Below, in pieces: positions 4,655-39,327 of a stretch of DNA of 39,359 nt. Source of the DNA: Candidatus Nanopelagicales bacterium. Its GTDB lineage: Bacteria > Actinomycetota > Actinomycetes > S36-B12. The stretch is from NCBI GenBank assembly GCA_044240285.1, contig JBIHZU010000002.1, forward strand, positions 1 to 39,359. Reading direction: 5' to 3'. Position numbers and translations under genes: made by a program. Every line of letters begins with the position of its first letter. Position 1 is the stretch's first letter. The notes beneath the pieces are model-generated. The model saw only the letters and a list, made by a program, of their open reading frames with translations. It ran no database searches and was not told the origin of the DNA.

Positions 4655-4725
4655 TCCCGGTTCGTCTAATGGCAGGACAAGAGCCTTTGGAGCTCTGTAT
4701 GGGGGTTCGACTCCCTCACCGGGAG
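4655..4725 (+). tRNA. tRNA-Gln (anticodon UUG)
   Basis: Hand-folded cloverleaf. Acceptor TCCCGGT/ACCGGGA, D-arm GTCT-AATGGCA-GGAC, anticodon arm AGAGC-CTTTGGA-GCTCT (U33-UUG-G37), T-arm GGGGG-TTCGACT-CCCTC, discriminator G. The 3' CCA is not encoded exactly (the tRNA is followed by CCCA). Confidence 0.85.
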
Positions 4726-4773
4726 CCCACGTGTGGGCGATAGTGTGGCTAGGTCACACCATCAGGAGGTCCC

Positions 4774-8225: not shown

Positions 8226-9034
8226 TGTCCACCGATAGCGAACTGTCCGTCACGTCAGCGATTGAGGCTGGCCAACTCCTGCTGGACCTGCGAGCGACGT
8301 TCGGCGAATTGGATCCCGCCGACACAGACACGGCAAATCGACTCCGCAAAGAAGCTGACCGCGCTTCCCACCTGCTGATTGTCGACCGACTCGGATCTGC
8401 TCGGCCCAATGATTGCATTCTCAGTGAGGAAGGCAAGGACGACCTTGCCCGCCTCGGCGCTGATCGGGTCTGGATAGTCGATCCCCTTGATGGCACGTTT
8501 GAGTACGGCCAAGGACGTTCGGATTTTGCGGTTCACATCGTGTTGTGGGTTCGAGACGAGTCCGCGCCGACAGGTGGGCGGCTTGAGGCGAGCACGGTCG
8601 AACTCCCGGCGCAAAAACTCACACGCACCGATACCGATCCGGCGGGTCTGTCTTTCGCTTTGCCCGCGGATCGACCGATCCGCATCGTGGCATCGCGTAG
8701 CCGTGCACCCAAGTGGCTGCCCGCCGCGGTCGTGACTCTGGCGGAACGCCTCGGCCGCGAGGTCGAGGTTATTGACGTGGGATCTGTTGGGGCAAAAGTC
8801 AATGAGATCCTCTGCGGACGGGCGGATGCCTACGTACACGACACCGGCTTTTACGAGTGGGATGTCGCGGCGCCCTACGCCGTTGCGCACCAATACGGCT
8901 TGCACGCATCGCATGTCGATGGCGCACCCATCGTTTTCAATGCAGATCCGCCGTACGTCAACAGTCTGCTTGTCGCAATCCCGCCACTTCTTTCAGACCT
9001 ACGGGCGGTCTTCGCGGAGGCCAGTTCCTCGTGA
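8222..9034 (+). CDS. Inositol-monophosphatase family protein (CysQ-like 3'(2'),5'-bisphosphate nucleotidase)
   Basis: LSEE...WIVDPLDGTFEY metal-binding motif. ATG 8222 overlaps the pth stop (ATGA). Confidence 0.75.
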   Translation: MMSTDSELSVTSAIEAGQLLLDLRATFGELDPADTDTANRLRKEADRASHLLIVDRLGSARPNDCILSEEGKDDLARLGADRVWIVDPLDGTFEYGQGRSDFAVHIVLWVRDESAPTGGRLEASTVELPAQKLTRTDTDPAGLSFALPADRPIRIVASRSRAPKWLPAAVVTLAERLGREVEVIDVGSVGAKVNEILCGRADAYVHDTGFYEWDVAAPYAVAHQYGLHASHVDGAPIVFNADPPYVNSLLVAIPPLLSDLRAVFAEASSS

Positions 9035-12000
9035 CTCTTGTCGCGCTTCTGCGATTGGCCCAGGCGGATCCAGCATTTGCCGAGGCAATGCGGCTGGCTG
9101 GTCTTCAGCGCGGTGCGGTGAGTGATGTCGGAATTACTGCCCCTGCCTCTTTGCGAAGTCTGATTGCTTCAGGTGTGGCTCAGCACCGCACGGTCCTATT
9201 GGTGACTGCTACTGGACGTGAAGCTGAGGATTTGTGTTCCTCACTTCAGGGGGCAATCGACGGCGTATGTGCGGAGTTTCCGGCTTGGGAGACACTTCCG
9301 CATGAGCGGCTCTCGCCCTCAGCAGACACAGTCGGCCGACGCATTGACCTGCTGTCACGCCTAGCTGATCCGAGCCGCGATGTGCGTGTGATTGTTGCTC
9401 CGGTCCGTTCGATTCTGCAGCCCATCGTGCAAGGGCTAGGTCGATTGAAGCCGCTTGTGATTCGCGAGGGCGAAGATATCGACATTGATGCAATCGCGTA
9501 CGCCTTAGTCGAACGTGGCTACACCCGCACGGATCTAGTCGAACGCCGCGGCCACTTCGCTATCCGTGGCGGCATCATTGATGTGTTTCCACCGACCGCT
9601 GAGCATCCATTGCGCGCTGAGCTGTGGGGTGACACGGTCGAAGAGGTTCGCAGTTTCGCCGTTGCGGATCAGCGGTCCCTTGAGGCAGTGCCTGATGGCA
9701 TTAACTGTCTCCCAGTGCGCGAACTGCAGCTCACGAGCCAAATTCGTGAGCGTGCTGCGGCGCTAGTAGACGCGCACCCGGAAGTTGCAGATCTTCTCGC
9801 CCGCATCGCAGAAGGCGTAACTGTGGATGGCATGGAGGCTCTTGCTCCATTGTTGGCAGAGGGCATGGAGACCTTGCTCGACGTCGTTCCCGACGACACC
9901 CTTGTGCTGGTCTGCGATCCAGAGCGAGTGCGTGCGCGAGCGCATGAACTCGTTGCGACGTCACAGGAGTTCCTTGAGGCGTCTTGGCACAACGCGACGG
10001 TGGGCAACAGCACACCCATTGACCTCGCAGCGGCTGCCTATCGGTCGATAAGCGACCTTCGCGAAATTGCTTCCGCTCGCCAATTGCCGTGGTGGTGGAT
10101 AACGCCATTCGCCGACGACAGTGACGTTGAGTCCTTGGTGATCGATGCTCAAGAAGGTCAGGCCTATCGCGGTGACATTGAGCGGGTGATTGGCGATGTG
10201 CGCGCGCACCTCGTGCAAGGCATGAGCGTGGTATGGGCTTGCGAAGGCCATGGCTCTGCCGAACGCACGGTCGAGTCGTTGGTTGCGGCCGAGATCGCGG
10301 CCACACTTGTCTCCGATCTTGACGATGCTCCTCGCGCCGGAATCGTGACCGTGGTAACCGCCCGCATCTATCACGGCTTCGTGTCACCGTCGATGAATCT
10401 TTTGCTCATCACCGAGGACGACGTTGTTGGCCAGCGCTCCTCGACGCGTGACATGCGCCGAATGCCATCTCGGCGCCGCGCGACTCTTGATCCGTTGCAA
10501 CTCAAAGTGGGCGATTTCGTCGTCCATGAGCAGCATGGCGTAGGTCGCTACGTCGAGATGGCACAACGAGTTGTGGCCGGGGCGACGCGTGAATATCTCG
10601 TGCTCGAATACGCATCCAGTAAGCGCGGCCAGCCTGCGGACCGGCTCTACGTGCCGATGGATCAACTCGATCAGGTCACGCGCTACGTGGGCGGCGAGGC
10701 GCCGACAGTGCATCGACTCGGTGGCGCGGATTGGGAGAAGGCCAAAGGTCGTGCTCGAAAAGCTGTACGCCAGATCGCTGGTGAACTCATTCGCCTTTAT
10801 GCAGCGCGTATGTCTGCTCCCGGATATGCATTCGGTCCGGATACTCCTTGGCAGCGCGAACTTGAGGATGCTTTCGCCTACGTGGAGACTCCCGATCAGT
10901 TGTCGTGCATTGATGAGGTCAAGGCCGACATGGAAAAGGCCATCCCCATGGACCGGCTCATCTGTGGTGACGTCGGTTACGGCAAGACCGAGATCGCGGT
11001 GCGCGCGGCGTTCAAAGCCGTGCAGGATGGTCGTCAGGTGGTTGTACTTGTCCCCACCACACTTCTCGTGCAGCAGCATTTGTCAACGTTTGGCGAACGA
11101 TTCGCGCCGTTCCCCGTGAAGATCGCCGGTCTCTCTAGATTCCAGACCGCTAAGGAAGCGACCGCCGTCGTGGAGGCGGTGGCTGACGGCACCGTCGACG
11201 TTGTCATCGGCACGCACCGCCTCCTCACGTCGCAAATGCGATTCAAAGACTTGGGTCTGGTCATCGTTGATGAAGAACAACGCTTCGGAGTTGAACACAA
11301 GGAGCATTTGAAGGCTCTACGCACCAATGTCGATGTGCTGACGATGTCCGCAACACCGATCCCGCGATCCTTGGAGATGGCTGTCACAGGCATCCGGGAA
11401 ATGTCAACGATTCAGACTCCACCGGAGGAGCGCCTACCGATACTTACCTACGTCGGGCCCTACGACGACAAGCAGGTCGGTGCTGCGATTCGCCGCGAAC
11501 TCTTGCGCGAAGGACAGATCTTCTTTGTGCACAACCGTGTCGAATCTATTGAACGCGTGGCAGCACGTGTGCATGAGCTCGTACCCGATGCTCGCATCGG
11601 TGTCGCGCATGGACAGATGAACGAGCACACACTGGAGCAGGTCATCCTCGATTTCTGGGAACGAGAGATTGATGTGCTCGTGTGCACGACAATCGTGGAG
11701 TCTGGGCTAGATATCTCCAATGCAAACACGCTCATCGTCGATCGTGCTGACCTGCTCGGGCTGTCTCAACTCCACCAGTTGCGAGGGCGGGTAGGTCGCG
11801 GGCGTGAGCGGGCCTACGCGTACTTCATGTATCCCTCAGAACAGCCGCTCACGGAGATGGCGCACGATCGCCTCGCGACGATCGCACAGCACACGGATCT
11901 TGGTTCGGGTATGCAGATCGCGATGAAGGATCTGGAGATCCGTGGGGCCGGCAATCTGCTCGGTGGCGAGCAAAGCGGCCACATCGCCGATGTCGGATTT

Positions 12001-12504
12001 GATCTATACCTGCGGCTCGTGGGGGAGGCGCTCGCAGAAGTGCGTGGCACAGGGGTGCAGGAGGTCGCGGAGGTTCGCGTCGAACTCCCCATTGACGCAC
12101 ATCTGCCACATGAGTTCGTACCCGAAGAGAGACTCCGACTCGACGTCTACCGGCGCCTCGCTGCAGCGACGACTGATCCGGAGGTGGAGGCCGTGGCGGC
12201 CGAAATGACCGACCGGTTCGGGGCTCTTCCCGCTGTTGTGGAGAGCCTCTTAGGCGTAGCTCGCTTTCGAGTCTTGGCCAGGCGAGCCGGCCTTGATGAG
12301 GTGGTTTTACAGGGCAATGCAGTGCGATTCCATCCGGTTGAATTACCCGATTCCCGGATGATGCGCCTGACGAGGCTCTACCCGGGGAGCATCATCAAGC
12401 CCACCGTCCGTACCATCCTTGTACCGAGACCGGACGGCAACCTGCTGCAGTGGGCGACCGACCTCATCACCTCGGTACTAGAGCCAGACAGGAGCGTTTC
12501 GTGA
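9031..12504 (+). CDS. mfd: Transcription-repair coupling factor
   Basis: [12 protein letters not shown] (RNAP-interaction/CarD-like region), helicase Walker [18 protein letters not shown] box and [14 protein letters not shown] 9031 overlaps the upstream stop (GTGA). About 1157 aa. Confidence 0.93.
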
Positions 12505-18752: not shown

Positions 18753-18829
18753 GCCCCCGTAGTCCAACTGGCAGAGACGCCCGGCTTAAACCCGGCACAG
18801 TGTGGGTTCAAATCCCACCGGGGGCACCA
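18753..18829 (+). tRNA. Atypical tRNA: anticodon UAA (Leu codon UUA/UUG), Leu-like 3-bp D-stem, only a 5-nt variable loop
   Basis: Hand fold: acceptor GCCCCCG/CGGGGGC, TA, D-arm GTC-CAACTGGCAGA-GAC, G26. Anticodon arm CCCGG-CTTAAAC-CCGGC (4 bp plus a C:C top pair). Variable loop ACAGT, T-arm GTGGG-TTCAAAT-CCCAC, discriminator A, encoded CCA. Confidence 0.6.
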
Positions 18830-20197: not shown

Positions 20198-20899
20198 TTG
20201 AATATCCACACGACTCCGAGTCCTGATCGCGATGCCCCTGCAGGCTCGAAGCGGCGCTTGCGCAAGCCGCTGGTTGTGGGGGCCTGTGTGTCGGCAGCCA
20301 CGGTCGTCTGCGGCGGTCTGGTCTTCGTTGCGGGCCAAGCAGTCGCTGGCAATGGAAATCAGGCTATCCAACGGCCCGCTTACTACGCATGTGTGAACGC
20401 GAATGGCGACATGACTCTGACTACTCGAGATGCCTTCTGTGCCGCGGGAGATACGAAGTACACCTGGCGTGGTGCGGGAGCCAGTGGCCCCGCCGGACCG
20501 CAGGGTGACCGCGGGCGTCAAGGCCTCGCTGGTGCTGCTGGCCCTTCCGGTGCCGCTGGCCCTTCTGGTGCTGCTGGTCCTACGGGCCCCGCTGGTCCTA
20601 CGGGTCCTGCAGGCGTGTTGGGCGTCTACACGGTCACAAATTCCGGGACGCTCTACCCCCAAGGCGACTTTCGGTCGTTGACGGCCAGTTGCAACACGGG
20701 CCACTCAGTCTTGAGTGGTGGTTTCGATATGACGGGGAACCCCGGTGATGCGTGGATAAGTTCCGTCAAGGTTACGTCCAGCGCTCCCACCGTGGGTGTC
20801 GATGGTTGGACAGTCACTGTTGTCAGTAACATGCAGTTCATGGTGGCCGCTCCGTTGACAGTCACGGCAATCTGCTCACCAACACCACCGCCCGGTTAA
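20198..20899 (+). CDS. Membrane-anchored collagen-like triple-helix repeat protein
   Basis: TTG start 7 nt after GAGGGAG and an N-terminal TM/signal-anchor (LVVGACVSAATVVCGGLVFVAG). Fifteen uninterrupted G-X-Y triplets (GASGPAGPQGDRGRQGLAGAAGPSGAAGPSGAAGPTGPAGPTGPAG). The C-terminal domain (~95 aa) is beta-rich and contains Cys. Confidence 0.75.
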   Translation: MNIHTTPSPDRDAPAGSKRRLRKPLVVGACVSAATVVCGGLVFVAGQAVAGNGNQAIQRPAYYACVNANGDMTLTTRDAFCAAGDTKYTWRGAGASGPAGPQGDRGRQGLAGAAGPSGAAGPSGAAGPTGPAGPTGPAGVLGVYTVTNSGTLYPQGDFRSLTASCNTGHSVLSGGFDMTGNPGDAWISSVKVTSSAPTVGVDGWTVTVVSNMQFMVAAPLTVTAICSPTPPPG

Positions 20900-26925: not shown

Positions 26926-27909
26926 GTGGGTGACGTAATTGAAGCCAGCGGCTTAGTGAAGCGCTATGGCGAAGTGGTGGCGCTTGACGGGCTTGACCTG
27001 CGCGTATCCGAAGGGACAGTCCTAGGTCTGTTAGGTCCCAACGGCGCGGGCAAGACGACCGCGGTGCGAGTGCTGGCCACCTTGCTCAAGCCAGATGCGG
27101 GCACAGCGAAAGTTGCTGGCCACGATGTGCGGACAAAACCCAATGCCGTGCGCAGATCGATCGGGCTGACGGGTCAGTACGCCGCCGTAGACGAGTACCT
27201 CACCGGTCGAGAGAACTTGCGAATGTTCGGTGGGCTCTACCACCTCAAGCCGGCCTACGTGAAGGCACGTACGGATGAGCTCTTAGAACGGTTCGATCTC
27301 ACGGCGGCGGCGAATCGTTCGCTGCGGACGTACTCAGGTGGAATGCGCCGCAGGCTCGACCTGGCCGCGAGCCTTATTGCCAAACCGCCCATCCTCTTTC
27401 TCGACGAACCTACAACTGGTCTCGATCCAAGATCACGCCTTGGGCTCTGGCAGGTGATTCGCGATCTTGTGGCGGAAGGGACGACCGTTCTGCTCACGAC
27501 GCAGTACCTCGACGAGGCCGATCAGCTGGCCAACGAGATTGTCGTGATCGATAAGGGGCGCGTCATCGCCAAGGGCACTGCAGACATGCTGAAAGATCAG
27601 ATCGGTGGTGATCGCATTGAGATCACCATTGCGGACGTCGCCAAGGCGAATGCGGCAGCGGTGGCACTTCGTTCGGTGAGCACCGGCGAAGTGAGCATTG
27701 AAGATGATCGTCTTTCCGCTCCGGTGAGTGGTGGCTCTACTGTCCTTGTTGATGCGATTCGAGCTCTTGACGCACAAGATGTGGCGGTGACCGATCTCGT
27801 ACTTCGTCGACCCACGCTTGACGATGTCTTCCTATCTCTCACTGGGCACGCAGCCGAAGAGGATAATTCACCGCCACCCCCAAGTCGTCGTCGTGGAAGG
27901 GGGCAGTGA
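26926..27909 (+). CDS. ABC transporter ATP-binding protein (DrrA-like)
   Basis: Walker A GPNGAGKTT, signature YSGGMRRRL, Walker B ILFLDEPTTGLD. Confidence 0.9.
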   Translation: MGDVIEASGLVKRYGEVVALDGLDLRVSEGTVLGLLGPNGAGKTTAVRVLATLLKPDAGTAKVAGHDVRTKPNAVRRSIGLTGQYAAVDEYLTGRENLRMFGGLYHLKPAYVKARTDELLERFDLTAAANRSLRTYSGGMRRRLDLAASLIAKPPILFLDEPTTGLDPRSRLGLWQVIRDLVAEGTTVLLTTQYLDEADQLANEIVVIDKGRVIAKGTADMLKDQIGGDRIEITIADVAKANAAAVALRSVSTGEVSIEDDRLSAPVSGGSTVLVDAIRALDAQDVAVTDLVLRRPTLDDVFLSLTGHAAEEDNSPPPPSRRRGRGQ

Positions 27910-28748
27910 TGACCACCGGTGCACCAGAGATTATGAAGCGGCCAATCATTGGCTGGGGGCTGCATGACGGACTTGTCGTAGCGCGTCGAAATCTAATTCA
28001 GACCATTCGGGTGCCGGAGTTGCTGTTCTTCTCACTCGTACAGCCGGTCATCTTTGTGTTGTTGTTTGCCTATGTCTTCGGTGGAGCTATTCCGATCCCG
28101 GGTGATGATGGCGCAAGCGCCTATCGGGAGTACCTGATGCCGGGCATCTTCGGACAGACAGTGGCCTTTGCAGCCGCTGCCAGCACAGTGGGCTTGGCGG
28201 AAGACATGAAGCGCGGGCTGATAGATCGTTTCCGCGCCCTTCCAATGTCCAGCGGCGCAGTGCTCTTCGGGCGGACGGTGGCAGACACGCTGCGCCAAGT
28301 CCTAGTGCTCACCGTGTTGTCGATCACGGGGCTCCTCGTGGGGTGGCGCATCAACAATGGAATCTTCAACGCGATCCTCGCTTATCTGCTCCTCCTGCTG
28401 TTTGCCTACACCGTGGCTTGGATTGGTTCTTGGATTGGTTTGAAGGTGCCTAATCCAGAGACGGCAAGCACCGCTGGCCTGATCTGGCTCTTCCCCCTAA
28501 CCTTCTTGTCCAATGCATTTGTGCCGATTTCATCAATGCCGGGGTGGCTTCAAGTCGTTGCGGCATGGAACCCGGTCTCGTCGGTTGTTTTGGCTGCCCG
28601 AGAACTCTTTGGCAATCCCACTGGCATTCCTTCGACAGCATGGCCAATGCAGCATGCGGCGCTCTACACGTTGATCTCATGTGCAGTGCTCATTGCGATC
28701 TTTGCGCCGCTGGCAATTAGGAAGTACCGCAGCACGACGAGTCGTTAA
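27906..28748 (+). CDS. ABC-2 type transporter permease (DrrB-like)
   Basis: About six hydrophobic helices. The start (GTG 27906 or ATG 27909) overlaps the ATPase stop. The protein ends ...FAPLAIRKYRSTTSR*. Confidence 0.85.
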   Translation: MMTTGAPEIMKRPIIGWGLHDGLVVARRNLIQTIRVPELLFFSLVQPVIFVLLFAYVFGGAIPIPGDDGASAYREYLMPGIFGQTVAFAAAASTVGLAEDMKRGLIDRFRALPMSSGAVLFGRTVADTLRQVLVLTVLSITGLLVGWRINNGIFNAILAYLLLLLFAYTVAWIGSWIGLKVPNPETASTAGLIWLFPLTFLSNAFVPISSMPGWLQVVAAWNPVSSVVLAARELFGNPTGIPSTAWPMQHAALYTLISCAVLIAIFAPLAIRKYRSTTSR

Positions 28749-28790
28749 GTACGTCTGGGCAACTACCGCTAGCGGGGAAGTTCCCCGTAC

Positions 28791-28983
28791 CGGTTCCGCA
28801 GGCCTGTTCGCCAGCCTGTGCTCCGAGCTTGTACTCCGAGCTTGTACTCCGAGCTTGTACTCCGAGCCCGTTCTCCAGCCCTTCACTCCGGCCCGTTCTC
28901 CAGCCCTTCACTCCGGCCCGTTCTCCAGCCCTTCACTCCGGCCCGTTCTCCAGCCCTTCACTCCGGCCTGTTCTCCAGGCCCA
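28791..28983. repeat. Non-coding tandem array with 12/13/25-bp periodicity
   Basis: Four perfect 25-mers cccgttctccagcccttcactccgg at 28867-28966. They are preceded by three perfect 13-mers (ctccgagcttgta, 28821-28859) and by degenerate 12/13-mers from 28791. A partial unit follows at 28967-28983. Confidence 0.9.
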
Positions 28984-29001
28984 ATTCTCTTGCACCCCCG
29001 T

Positions 29002-29118
29002 AGTTGCTGACTTGTGGCAGTTGGTTTTTCCCAGTTGCTGACTTGTGGCAATTTTCGGAGGTCAAAAAGTTGCCACAACTCAGCAACTGCAAATTCTCGG
29101 TTGCCACAACTCAGCAAC
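29002..29118. repeat. Repeat cassette A: four 17-18-bp sites, two direct then two inverted
   Basis: agttgctgacttgtggca at 29002-29019 and 29033-29050. ttgccacaactcagcaac at 29070-29087 and 29101-29118, which is the reverse complement apart from the central base. Site centres are 31, 37 and 31 bp apart. Confidence 0.9.
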
Positions 29119-29147
29119 AAAGGGTGGAGACTGCCGATAATCGTTAC

Positions 29148-29263
29148 GTTGCCCGGTTATGGCAGTCGCAATCTTGTCATTGCCCGGTTGTGGCAACTTT
29201 TGCTCCCCTCGAAGTTGTCACAACCGGGCAACAAGGAGTCGGGGACTGTCACAACCGGGCAAC
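29148..29263. repeat. Repeat cassette B: paralogue of cassette A with the same geometry
   Basis: gttgcccggttatggca at 29148-29164, attgcccggttgtggca at 29179-29195, and tgtcacaaccgggcaac at 29216-29232 and 29247-29263 (inverted). Centres are again 31, 37 and 31 bp apart, offset 145 bp from cassette A. Confidence 0.9.
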
Positions 29264-29304
29264 AACGCGAAAAATGAGCCTGCCGTTGTGCCGAGGATCA
29301 GCGC

Positions 29305-29346
29305 CCACTGGCGATCAGGAAGCACCGCAGCACGACAAGTCGTTAG
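29305..29346 (+). pseudogene. Orphan duplicate of the ABC-2 permease 3' terminus (13 codons plus stop)
   Basis: cca ctg gcg atc agg aag cac cgc agc acg aca agt cgt tag encodes PLAIRKHRSTTSR*, against PLAIRKYRSTTSR* at 28707-28748. Five of six nucleotide differences are silent. There is no upstream ORF continuity. Confidence 0.8.
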
Positions 29347-29831
29347 CCGGCGTACGCCTCCACGCTGACGACGGTGACGCTCACTGATTTGCCGTTAGCG
29401 AGCTCGTAACTCGCCGAGTCACCCACGTGCTTGCCGAGTACGGCCGCGCCTAACGGAGACGACGGGGAATAGACCTCGACCGACGTGTGGGCAGCTTCTT
29501 CGCGAGATCCGAGCAGGAATGTCTCTTCTTCGTCGAAGTCATTGAACCGCACAGTGATGACTTTGCCGTGTGACACTTCGTCGGGGTGTGAGTCAGGTAC
29601 GCCGATTTGTGAGTTCTCGAGCAGCTGGCGCAACTGGCGGACTCGGGCCTCGTTCTTGCCCTGCTCCTCACGCGCTGCGTGGTAACCACCGTTCTCCTTG
29701 AGGTCGCCCTCCTCGCGCGCGGCTTCGATGCGCTTGGTGATCTCTTGGCGGCGCGGGCCCTCGCGATCAGCAAGTTCCTCGCTGAGTCGGTTGAAGGCTT
29801 CTTGGGTCAACCACGTCACGTGCTCGCTCAT
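29343..29831 (-). CDS. greA: Transcription elongation factor GreA
   Basis: MSEHVTWLTQEAFNRLSEEL coiled-coil N-terminus and a C-terminal FKBP-like domain (SPSSPLGAAVLGKHVGD). ATG start at 29829-29831. Confidence 0.92.
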   Translation of the reverse strand: MSEHVTWLTQEAFNRLSEELADREGPRRQEITKRIEAAREEGDLKENGGYHAAREEQGKNEARVRQLRQLLENSQIGVPDSHPDEVSHGKVITVRFNDFDEEETFLLGSREEAAHTSVEVYSPSSPLGAAVLGKHVGDSASYELANGKSVSVTVVSVEAYAG

Positions 29832-29848
29832 CCGAGCAGGGTACGCGA

Positions 29849-30325
29849 TCAGGCTGAATTCGGTGTCCACGGCTGTTCGGGTGGGAATACGCCGGGGGGG
29901 AACTGTGGGGGAATCACTCGTACGGGTGGTCCACCAGCCTCACAGGCCAGGATTTCGACGGTGTAGGCCGTAGCGAGCGTCCGCAAGGGGTACGTCAATT
30001 GCACGTAGCTCGCACCGGCTGCAAGAGGGATTGTGGCGTACGCAACATCGATGTGGGTCTCGTCCTGTGCACGCAGGATGCACCAGACGTTCGACTCCCC
30101 ATTGCGTCGGATCTCAAAGGTGACGTCGGTGTGTTCGGGGGAGAGGACCTGCCAGGTGAGCACCTTGGATTGGATCTTAGGGGCGGCGAGTTGCCAGGTG
30201 CCGTAGGCGATCGCTGCGCCGAAGGCCGCGATGACGACGACGGCCAAGGCAATAGTCCAGCGCGGCGTCCCTAGCCGATAGCGCTCGGCAATGTGAGGAG
30301 GGACATCCTTGGCCTTCACATGCAC
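29849..30325 (-). CDS. DUF4307 domain membrane protein
   Basis: Single N-terminal TM helix followed by a beta-rich domain. The position between greA and mca matches Rv1081c in M. tuberculosis. Confidence 0.65.
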   Translation of the reverse strand: MHVKAKDVPPHIAERYRLGTPRWTIALAVVVIAAFGAAIAYGTWQLAAPKIQSKVLTWQVLSPEHTDVTFEIRRNGESNVWCILRAQDETHIDVAYATIPLAAGASYVQLTYPLRTLATAYTVEILACEAGGPPVRVIPPQFPPGVFPPEQPWTPNSA

Positions 30326-38240: not shown

Positions 38241-38360
38241 CCTCATACGGGCGACTTAGTCATGTGACTTAGTGGTCCGTCCGTGTCCAATCTGTTACCG
38301 TTGGCCCGTTCCCATCCACCCAGGTGGGGACCTCGCGGGGACGCCAAGTCCTGCCCCCTC

Positions 38361-38510
38361 GTGAGCGCTAACCGCGGGCAGGAGCGGGGGACCCAACACC
38401 GCGCACGTACTTCTAGGGCGCGGGGGCGAGTGATCGCCCTGGGGTGAAGTCACGAACCTGTGACCGGCCAACTCCCGGCCGAACCCGACAGCTCACCCCG
38501 TAGGCGTGTA
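38361..38510 (+). promoter_or_regulatory. Cyclic-di-AMP riboswitch (ydaO/yuaA class)
   Basis: Conserved blocks in the canonical order: GAGCGCUAACC...GGAGCGGGGGACCCA (38362-38394), CCCUGGGGUGAAGUC (38438-38452) and CCGAACCCGACAGCUCACCCCGUAGGCGUG (38479-38508). Compare B. subtilis ...GAGCGGGGGACCCA...GGGGUGAAUC...CCGAAUCCGACAGCUAACCUCGUAAGCGU. The 3' end abuts the AGGAG RBS of the next gene. Confidence 0.82.
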
Positions 38511-38520
38511 GGAGATGTCC

Positions 38521-39327
38521 ATGCGTCGAGTGCTTGCTGTGCTCACGGTAGTTGCCGCGTTTGCGGCTCCCACCGCAGTCGCGTCAGCTCACGCTGCAAC
38601 GGCCTCGCCGAGTGTGGCGGCCGCAGCCGCTACGCGTGCTGTGCCCCCGACTCTTGAGTTTGGCGATAAGGGCCCGGCCGTACAGATCTTGCAGACTGCA
38701 CTTCGTGTCCCAAAGGCCAAGGCCCAGGGCTTCTTTAATCGCAAGACGCAGCGCGCAGTCAAGGCGTTCCAATTGCGCATGGGTCTTCGCACCACTGGCG
38801 TCGTCACCGCTCCTACCTGGGCTGCTCTCGGACCGCGGGTTTCGCGTGCTGCAGCACGCACCGTCGCAATGGCTCCGTCCGATGTGCTCCCGTGGGAGTC
38901 TTTCGCGGCACGTGACCTCGTGGGTTATCGCACGAGCGCCTACCAGGGCAAGCACTTCGTCGCCGGCATGGAGCAGTACCGCCTGTGCATCGTGCAGCGC
39001 GAGTCCGGCGGCAATTACCGTGTCGGCAGCTACTACCAAGGCGCCTACCAATTTGCGCCGTCGTGGAACTCGACAATTCGCGCCCACCTGCGGCCTGAGA
39101 TGGCGGCCAAGTACGGCCAAGCCGGTGCTAATGCGGTTGATGCACTTGCAGGGAAAAACATTAGCGAGTGGAACCGTTTCTGGCAGGACGCGGCCTTCTA
39201 CTCCGTGGTTGCTCACTCCGGCACCGGACCGTGGGCGGGGGGCAACTGGTCCTGTGACTCTCGGTCAGGCCGGGAGTCGGGTTGGCCGAGCGCTGGCGCG
39301 TGGAACTATCTCCCTTTTGAGGGCTGA
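38521..39327 (+). CDS. Secreted peptidoglycan-binding protein with a transglycosylase-like (Rpf/lysozyme-like) domain
   Basis: Signal peptide MRRVLAVLTVVAAFAAPTAVASA|HA and a PG_binding_1-like segment (GDKGPAVQILQTAL...TQRAVKAFQ...TGVVTAPTW). The C-terminal CIVQRESGGNYRV...GAYQF resembles the catalytic-Glu region of Rpf. ATG 38521 lies 6 nt after AGGAG; ATG 38515 is also in frame. Confidence 0.8.
   Translation: MRRVLAVLTVVAAFAAPTAVASAHAATASPSVAAAAATRAVPPTLEFGDKGPAVQILQTALRVPKAKAQGFFNRKTQRAVKAFQLRMGLRTTGVVTAPTWAALGPRVSRAAARTVAMAPSDVLPWESFAARDLVGYRTSAYQGKHFVAGMEQYRLCIVQRESGGNYRVGSYYQGAYQFAPSWNSTIRAHLRPEMAAKYGQAGANAVDALAGKNISEWNRFWQDAAFYSVVAHSGTGPWAGGNWSCDSRSGRESGWPSAGAWNYLPFEG

Follow-up and report, generated by a model that had tools for sequence, protein, structure and literature searches.

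The DNA considered here, referred to as the window, comprises 39,359 nucleotides from a Candidatus Nanopelagicales bacterium (GenBank assembly GCA_044240285.1, contig JBIHZU010000002.1, positions 1 to 39,359; G+C ~60%). This report concerns two arrays of short sites within it, cassettes A and B, which sit between the 3' ends of two convergent genes: that of an ABC-2 type transporter permease (27906-28748, + strand; Pfam PF01061, E = 2.7e-31) and greA, encoding a transcription elongation factor (29343-29870, - strand; Pfam PF03449 and PF01272). Beyond these lie genes for a DUF4307 protein and for a deacetylase of the PIG-L family. This order of genes, the base composition and the related loci described below assign the window to Actinomycetota. 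Cassette A (29003-29118) consists of four 17-bp sites, two direct followed by two inverted, starting at 29003 (+), 29034 (+), 29071 (-) and 29102 (-), and cassette B (29148-29263) has the same layout, with sites at 29148 (+), 29179 (+), 29216 (-) and 29247 (-). In both, the start-to-start spacing is 31, 37 and 31 bp; a step of 46 bp separates the fourth site of A from the first of B, and the cassettes start 145 bp apart. This geometry had been described in an earlier note, made from the letters of the sequence, and it stands: eight exact matches to RTTGC-N4-TTRTGRCA fall within 29003-29263, compared with 0.01 expected by chance per window, and the rest of the window contains no further match.

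The sites differ in a variable core of 4 nt. In cassette A the + sites have the core TGAC and the - sites TGAG, and in cassette B the core is CCGG in all copies and equals its own reverse complement; site B1 is TTATGGCA and site B2 begins with ATTGC. The consensus of the earlier note, written with a 5-nt core, has zero matches. Its statement that the inverted copies carry the matching complement fails in A, where each stem has an uncompensated C/C mismatch, and holds in B, where it is automatic because CCGG is self-complementary. The spacers between neighbouring sites are 14 nt long, not the 13 nt of the internal loops proposed there, and the inner loops, put at 16-18 nt, shrink to ~10 nt, since pairing continues through the first 5 nt of the 20-nt centre. 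The central spacers lie at 29051-29070 in cassette A, where the outer 5 nt on each side (A-TTT / AAA-T) prolong the inner inverted sites and the middle is variable, and at 29196-29215 in cassette B (also 20 nt). GTAG precedes only some outer sites (28999-29002 in the window), and others are preceded by gtc, ctc, gca or ctt. The open reading frames (ORFs) across the cassettes (29004-29387 and 28681-29010) have no Pfam match. A CRISPR array was considered and rejected: the repeats are 17 nt and the spacers 14 nt long, the orientation switches mid-array, and there is no cas gene among the neighbours examined.

Together with a unique leader that includes a variable tandem repeat, a linker and a tail, the cassettes form a block of ~560 bp (28749-29304). 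The block is an insertion, because two relatives, L110 (permease 86% identical in amino acid sequence) and L113 (82%), have nothing at the permease/greA junction, the permease stop codon lying 6 nt from the greA stop codon or overlapping it. The block is bordered by a 41-nt duplication. The left copy (28707-28747, +), found by repeat search, is 88% identical to the right copy and in frame with the ORF at 27906-28748; the right copy (29305-29345, +) was placed by alignment with the two empty sites. Read from these alignments, the right copy is the ancestral permease end, which formerly overlapped the greA stop codon, and the left copy a duplicate that preserves the permease reading frame and now forms the functional 3' end of the gene. 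The duplication is much longer than the usual target-site duplication, and in the orthologous locus L005 the right copy is replaced by unrelated sequence. A tandem repeat of 13/25-nt units (28799-28981; TRF: 4.8 copies of the 25-mer ACTCCGGCCCGTTCTCCAGCCCTTC) lies directly upstream of cassette A, and its copy number across three orthologous loci falls from the window to L006 to L005. Unrelated short tandem repeats adjoin other cassettes too (L001/L019, L016, L021).

A Dispersed Family of Arrays

The inner inverted pair of the cassettes (inner-hairpin pattern) was scanned against 185,579 species-representative genomes. The further copies in related genomes for which the earlier note had suggested looking do exist, at 24 loci. 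These include 10 contigs of the metagenome-assembled genome (MAG) Loclat_bin-11151 and 8 of UFOp-RH-23may17-460, both freshwater Actinomycetota; the remaining loci are a few variants in other actinobacterial MAGs, plus two outside Actinomycetota that look like chance matches. Loclat_bin-11151 contains at least 14 cassettes at 9 loci and UFOp-RH-23may17-460 at least 12 at 8 loci, all of them intergenic. Plasmids and phages gave no DNA match to the cassettes and viral contigs no pattern match. Gene orientation around each cassette was assigned with a filter on third-position G+C content, which is noisy and was used qualitatively only.

In the two main MAGs the recurring 17-mers are A (GTTGCTGACTTGTGGCA), B (GTTGCCCGGTTGTGGCA) and, once, C (GTTGCTCAGTTGTGGCA), and types A and B often stand side by side. 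Cassette A of the window shows 75-82% identity over ~120 nt to the type-A cassettes of L001, L003, L007, L010, L014, L016, L021 and L022, and cassette B matches the type-B cassettes of L002, L003, L004, L009, L015, L016, L019, L021 and L024. The arrays take a common form: 1-5 direct copies at exactly 31 bp, a dyad step of 37 bp, and then 1-4 inverted copies, with unequal arms in some (5+2, 3+1 and 2+4).

At 91% identity, L006 and L005 are orthologous to the locus in the window, from which they differ by whole 31-nt units, plus a deletion that fuses an A site to a B site. Arrays evolve through the gain and loss of 31-bp units. Compared with the window, L006 has one 31-nt unit fewer on the left arm and one more on the right; explaining its arrangement (+ - - -) as an inversion of that in the window (+ + - -) was rejected, as the central spacer is not flipped between them. 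Outer sites can also decay while the inner pair stays: at L017 (4026-4048) a degenerate B-like site (GTTGCCCTGCTTTCACA) is found just upstream of a solo type-C hairpin, and the orthologue L010 shows a complete outer A site at that position.

Conservation, Pairing and Folding

Ten comparisons of orthologous cassettes show that site positions are far more constant than their surroundings, with 15 differences at 714 site positions (2.1%) and 133 at 1271 non-site positions (10.5%; Fisher's exact p = 2e-13). Complementarity between the arms was measured in 25 canonical 116-nt cassettes. It reaches 96-97% in the sites and 32% in the 14-nt spacers, which is chance level; within the 20-nt centre, positions 49 and 51-53 are paired in 88-96% of the cassettes, position 50 in 56%, and positions 54-58 in 4-68%. 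As the spacers pair at chance and the sites are conserved, it is the 17-mer and its spacing that are maintained, rather than the pairing of the arms. The arms evolve in concert, since in the orthologous pair L010/L017 the core has changed from TGAC to TCAG in both arms around an identical loop.

The window region is predicted to fold very stably on both strands, with -153.9 kcal/mol on the + strand (z = -14.3) and -149.8 kcal/mol on the - strand (z = -12.1). Folding had been proposed in the earlier note as a check, and equally strong folding of both strands is typical of a DNA palindrome and not of an RNA specific to one strand. Rfam 15 contains no family that matches at its gathering threshold, the sub-threshold hits being miRNA-hairpin look-alikes of at most 33 bits against thresholds of 60-90. 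A search for intrinsic terminators in 28600-29500 returned two weak matches, compared with 0.8 in shuffled sequence, and neither is a cassette stem followed by a T-tract. The covariation between A and B that had been taken as evidence of base pairing amounts to the same 17-mer present in both orientations. Covariation as a sign of a conserved base-paired structure is therefore not borne out, given the chance-level pairing of the spacers, the unequal arms, the lack of an Rfam match, and arms that lie 1 kb apart in homologous loci (see below).

A Nuclease Gene Bracketed by Cassettes

At several loci in relatives of the window, cassettes stand on both sides of a gene. L014 and L007 contain a 315-aa ORF (Pfam DUF559) just downstream of rodA, with type-A cassettes on both sides, and type-A loci of this kind also include L025 and L026. 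A type-B protein, P0003, which is 66% identical to the type-A protein, is encoded at the rodA locus between type-B cassettes (L105); another, P0004, lies at the rodA locus with an upstream type-B cassette (L106), on a contig that stops at the stop codon of the gene. The type-C protein of L126 (95% identical to P0002 and 69-71% to the A and B proteins) is encoded between type-C cassettes. In all, the loci counted as an enzyme gene flanked by repeats are L014, L007, L025, L026, L105, L126 and L008. The upstream cassette ends ~40-90 bp before the start codon of the nuclease gene, whose neighbours are rodA and a radical-SAM gene; no AbiEii (DUF1814) gene is adjacent. Empty rodA sites are found in L122 and L124 (RodA 74% and 70% identical), where the radical-SAM gene follows rodA after 26-27 nt, with no nuclease gene or cassette.

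The encoded protein, of ~300 aa, combines an AbiEi-like winged-helix DNA-binding N-terminal part with a C-terminal nuclease part of the Vsr/DUF559 (EDxHD) type. The Pfam families found among the protein and its homologues are DUF559, MTES_1575 and AbiEi_4 (PF13338, in 3 of 16 homologues), and a profile search of PDB sequences gave 3hrl (a DUF559 structure), 3r3p (the catalytic domain of I-Bth0305I; E = 9e-5), PvuRts1I and Vsr. An AlphaFold2 model built on an alignment of 40 homologues has a pLDDT of 91.8 (a single-sequence model, with a pLDDT of 33, was not used), and its top Foldseek matches are Mycobacterium tuberculosis Rv2827c (1zel), an AbiEi-family antitoxin, and 3r3p. The Vsr-fold catalytic domain is matched with a Foldseek TM score of 0.74, normalised to the target. 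In the nuclease part, residues S, E, D and E are invariant in all 40 aligned homologues, within a domain marked by the motif IEYDGAHHRD. For these two-domain proteins of Actinomycetota, labelled DUF559 or "endonuclease domain-containing", the family profile collects 15,076 clusters, formed at 50% identity, from 1.84 billion representative proteins with E <= 1e-30; the protein is missing from phages and nearly so from plasmids.

The cores follow the type of the protein, being TGAC with A, CCGG with B and TCAG with C. RodA of L014 and L126 is 95% identical and the flanks of the L105 locus show 82-95% DNA identity to L014, whereas the nuclease gene at the same locus is 72% identical or unalignable, and the three alleles are 66-71% identical to one another. 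Similar surroundings with a diverged gene indicate that alleles replace one another at a single locus. Divergence between the A protein and the B and C proteins is concentrated in the N-terminal two thirds: the nuclease part is 78-86% identical, against 54-58% for the N-terminal part and 54-59% for the middle. The allelic replacement at the rodA/radical-SAM locus (L105, L014, L126) resembles that of defence or conflict genes.

Distant Homologues and Cultured Strains

Bracketing by repeats extends to distant members of the protein family. In a Marmoricola MAG, from an unrelated lineage, a homologue (28% identity, E = 2e-14) lies between ATTGCGGGGTTGTGACA hairpins that contain a variant site at 36-bp spacing. 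A metagenome scan yielded 80 loci of homologues at 27-40% identity, of which 59 extend at least 200 nt to either side of the gene; these were tested for exact matches of at least 15 nt between the upstream and downstream flanks. Such matches occur at 36 of the 59 loci, whereas among the controls permuted pairs gave 3 in 289 and shifted positions 2 in 57. The flank repeats are lineage-specific and follow three layouts. In the simplest (>< G ><, where G is the gene) a palindrome with a 19-30-bp stem stands on each side of the gene. In the second (>>> G <<<) the gene is preceded by 2-5 direct copies of the site and followed by 2-5 inverted ones, with arms 1 kb apart and a period of 22 bp in L094, L077, L064, L060, L041, L042 and L073 and of 33 bp in L053. 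The third (>><< G >><<) is the form of the window's own lineage. The second layout corresponds to the geometry of a cassette with the gene placed in its middle.

Bracketed genes are also present in cultured strains, namely Curtobacterium flaccumfaciens, Mycetocola sp. CAN_C7, Arthrobacter sp. StoSoilB13 and Tsukamurella tyrosinosolvens NCTC13231. In Tsukamurella the gene neighbours a HAD hydrolase gene and a SpoIID/LytB gene, and eight solo palindromes, 78-85% identical, are found on seven other records; all three of those checked sit between convergent genes. Arthrobacter likewise has extra, solo copies. Many nuclease homologues are on contigs of 1.0-1.6 kb (L032, L035, L061, L105, L106). Those contigs that were inspected (L105 and L106) end in or beside the flanking repeats, so that metagenome assemblies probably break systematically at these repeats.

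Proposed Function and Alternatives

In the reading that we consider probable, both cassettes are gene-less ("solo") arrays of phased binding sites, members of a dispersed family whose proposed partner is the AbiEi-winged-helix/Vsr-DUF559 nuclease. The family is dispersed in intergenic DNA, the window copy was inserted between convergent genes, and in relatives the nuclease gene is bracketed by the same sites. That the protein binds and cleaves at such sites, and the way in which copies spread, we infer. The protein would occupy neighbouring 17-mers, as double-stranded DNA, along a single helical face (31 bp being about three turns), and the inverted pair at 37 bp would come near the 36 bp of the Rv2827c/AbiEi operator. 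Nuclease action at or near the arrays may then trigger repair or recombination, which in turn may create and homogenise arrays and occasionally copy them to new intergenic sites, in a manner like that of REPIN-RAYT systems (REPINs being inverted pairs of repetitive extragenic palindromic, REP, sequences and RAYTs the REP-associated tyrosine transposases). Solo arrays could also arise when flanking cassettes recombine and the gene is lost, in the way that solo long terminal repeats form. They would persist mainly at the 3' ends of convergent genes, where insertions are tolerated, and may additionally serve as hairpin barriers to read-through transcription. The other possibility raised in the earlier note, specificity variants of one phased DNA-binding protein, is supported in this modified form: a winged-helix nuclease gene is bracketed, three allelic types go with three cores, and the sites are in helical phase (31 bp here; 22 or 33 bp elsewhere).

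Several observations weigh against this reading. The nuclease gene is not in the 39-kb window, and 23 of the 59 homologue loci show no shared flank sequence in the exact-match test. MAGs with only a type-A gene still hold A, B and C solo cassettes, so either a single protein accepts every core, or further alleles escaped notice because the MAGs are incomplete, or the solos of types B and C are relics. The covariation of protein and core is seen in three lineages, each with gene and flanks in physical linkage, and shared descent alone could yield it; a conserved helix ("AARLWGLP") is almost identical in the A, B and C proteins. Palindrome-templated gene conversion, instead of selection for binding, could account for the conservation of the sites. 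Finally, cassette positions are conserved between the two main MAGs, so that the insertions in evidence are two ancient gains and not recent moves.

One alternative is that the cassettes act as nucleic-acid hairpins, either as bidirectional RNA terminators or 3'-end stabilisers or as DNA cruciforms, and that the nuclease genes merely share them as terminators. It would account for the very strong folding of both strands (z = -14 and -12), the parallel core change in L010/L017 with its identical loop, the paired first 5 nt of the centre and, above all, the position of the window copy and of all three checked Tsukamurella solos between convergent 3' ends, a location striking enough for this explanation to keep some weight. 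We nonetheless regard it as unlikely. The spacers pair at chance and yet have a fixed length of 14 nt, the numbers of sites in the two arms are often unequal, and the stems of window cassette A have an uncompensated mismatch common to both inverted copies. No T-tract follows the stems, terminator-like matches are no commoner than in shuffles (2 vs 0.8), no Rfam family matches, and arms 1 kb apart around a gene, as in several homologue lineages, cannot form a hairpin. It is similarly doubtful that the sites are purely regulatory or architectural, such that the AbiEi-like protein regulates its own gene via flanking operators and the solos are extra chromosomal sites of a domesticated protein (acting in the nucleoid or in convergent transcription), with no role in making or moving them. 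Autoregulation via inverted repeats upstream of their own genes is indeed known for AbiEi-family proteins (PMC7319586), and the short distance from upstream cassette to start codon (~40-90 bp), the conserved cassette positions in MAGs that are ~90% identical, and the absence of the protein from phages and near absence from plasmids would all fit. This explanation leaves unexplained, however, the cassette downstream of the gene, the intact nuclease domain with its S, E, D and E invariant in 40 homologues, the exchange of allelic protein types at a single locus, and the insertion of identical arrays at unrelated intergenic sites.

A further possibility is that the cassettes are ordinary miniature inverted-repeat transposable elements (MITEs), moved by a DDE or other transposase encoded elsewhere, and that the DUF559 genes happen to sit in a MITE hotspot. 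The cassettes are small, palindromic, dispersed and intergenic, their ends resemble terminal inverted repeats, and A and B cassettes are often adjacent, as if insertion were targeted. A short target-site duplication is missing, however: the window locus has only the 41-nt duplication, and none is recognisable at the rodA locus. No transposase was found in any locus examined, and the DUF559-type nuclease gene is the only gene bracketed by the sites; in addition, at 36 of the 59 distant loci a gene of this type is bracketed by wholly different repeats, and the core of the sites follows the protein type. We therefore find this explanation very improbable. A plasmid or phage origin was also rejected, with no DNA match in plasmids or phages, no pattern match in viral contigs, and no such protein in phages.

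Other Features of the Window

The window contains several features away from the cassettes. A 270-aa ORF (38515-39327) with a peptidoglycan-binding domain is directly preceded by a c-di-AMP riboswitch (38356-38521, +; RF00379, 67 bits). An 18/36-nt tandem repeat at 20529-20614, inside the ORF 20198-20899 (+), encodes a collagen-like Gly-X-Y stretch (Pfam Collagen, E = 2.2e-8), which is unusual for a small freshwater actinobacterial genome. Two tRNA genes, for tRNA-Gln (TTG; 4655-4727) and tRNA-Leu (TAA; 18753-18829), are present, and the ORF 8857-12504 encodes the transcription-repair coupling factor Mfd.

Comparison with Known Systems

The earlier note had stated that the architecture is not any named element and had set REP sequences aside. 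The cassettes indeed belong to no named class; they behave, however, much like REP/REPIN sequences. Like the REP/REPIN-RAYT systems of Proteobacteria, they are short extragenic palindromes in tens of dispersed copies, mostly at 3' ends or between convergent genes, and occur as inverted doublets and clusters, the inner inverted pair being present in every cassette. Both systems have a chromosomal cognate enzyme gene that is itself flanked by the repeats, and both have several repeat types per genome, the repeat positions here being common to related genomes. The enzymes are different: here an AbiEi-winged-helix domain is joined to a Vsr/DUF559 nuclease of the PD-(D/E)xK type, in place of an HUH Y1 transposase, and because the enzyme is unrelated the cassettes are not members of the REP/RAYT group. 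The arrays here are also strictly phased (31, 22 or 33 bp) with unpaired spacers, which points to the binding of double-stranded DNA and not to the recognition of single-stranded hairpins. The conserved GTAG is missing, and the host phylum is Actinomycetota.

The DNA-binding part leads to a second comparison. As autoregulators, AbiEi and Rv2827c recognise paired 23-bp inverted repeats that lie upstream of their own genes, and in Rv2827c the paired repeats are 13 bp apart, or ~36 bp from centre to centre, with two pairs in tandem (PMC7319586). The N-terminal part of the nuclease best matches 1zel, AbiEi_4 is found in homologues, and the sites of the cassettes likewise form inverted-repeat pairs, at 37 bp. 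Unlike the AbiE type IV toxin-antitoxin system, however, the loci contain no gene for the AbiEii nucleotidyltransferase partner, and in the absence of a toxin gene they do not form such a system. The C-terminal domain is a nuclease instead of an antitoxicity domain, and the sites, unlike AbiEi operators, are also found downstream of the gene and at many unrelated loci.

The catalytic domain agrees in profile and fold with Vsr-fold nucleases (3r3p, 3hrl and Vsr). I-Bth0305I is likewise multidomain, a dimer with a footprint of ~60 bp (PMC3239194), and the layout >>> G <<< resembles a gene inside a split recognition array. In contrast to I-Bth0305I-type homing endonucleases, the gene here is free-standing and intergenic, with no intron or intein; in the lineage of the window it lies between two intact cassettes and splits neither, in other lineages it stands between inverted arrays (>>> G <<<), and gene-less arrays persist in the same genome. 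The nuclease thus does not look like an intron-borne homing endonuclease. Transposons and MITEs with several subterminal binding sites (Tn7, Mu) also have direct site repeats at each end that are inverted between the ends, so that a gene-less cassette is comparable to two ends joined. They differ in their DDE transposase, their short target duplication and the complete palindromic cassette that is found here on each side of the gene. With neither a short target duplication nor a transposase, the cassettes are not conventional MITEs.

In the full-text literature, a coverage that leaves out most subscription journals, no description was found of DUF559 or AbiEi-Vsr proteins bracketed by repeats, or of REP-like systems in Actinomycetota that use them. 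One survey found DUF559 proteins enriched among predicted targets of programmed inversion (PMC9881135), and inverted repeats like the flanking palindromes could be a source of this enrichment. For a nuclease family of unassigned function, with more than 15,000 clusters, the association would give each member a concrete predicted DNA target. Three natural pairs of protein and site that differ by a 4-bp core offer a system for the study of specificity change and possibly sequence-specific binders or nickases; for assembly, it is of practical relevance that the genes are often on contigs of 1-2 kb that end near the flanking repeats. More tentatively, and with the odds somewhat against it, AbiEi-winged-helix/Vsr nucleases may be the enzymes of an unrecognised class of nuclease-driven, mostly vertically inherited repeats across Actinomycetota. 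Each would have its own phased array that brackets its own gene and seeds gene-less arrays at convergent gene ends, with specificity switching by allelic replacement, and the class would be a convergent counterpart of REPIN-RAYT based on the recognition of double-stranded DNA. If so, a partnership between a repeat population and a single-copy enzyme arose separately from REPIN-RAYT, with a nuclease of the PD-(D/E)xK type, and such a separate origin would bear on how partnerships between intragenomic repeats and enzymes arise and persist.

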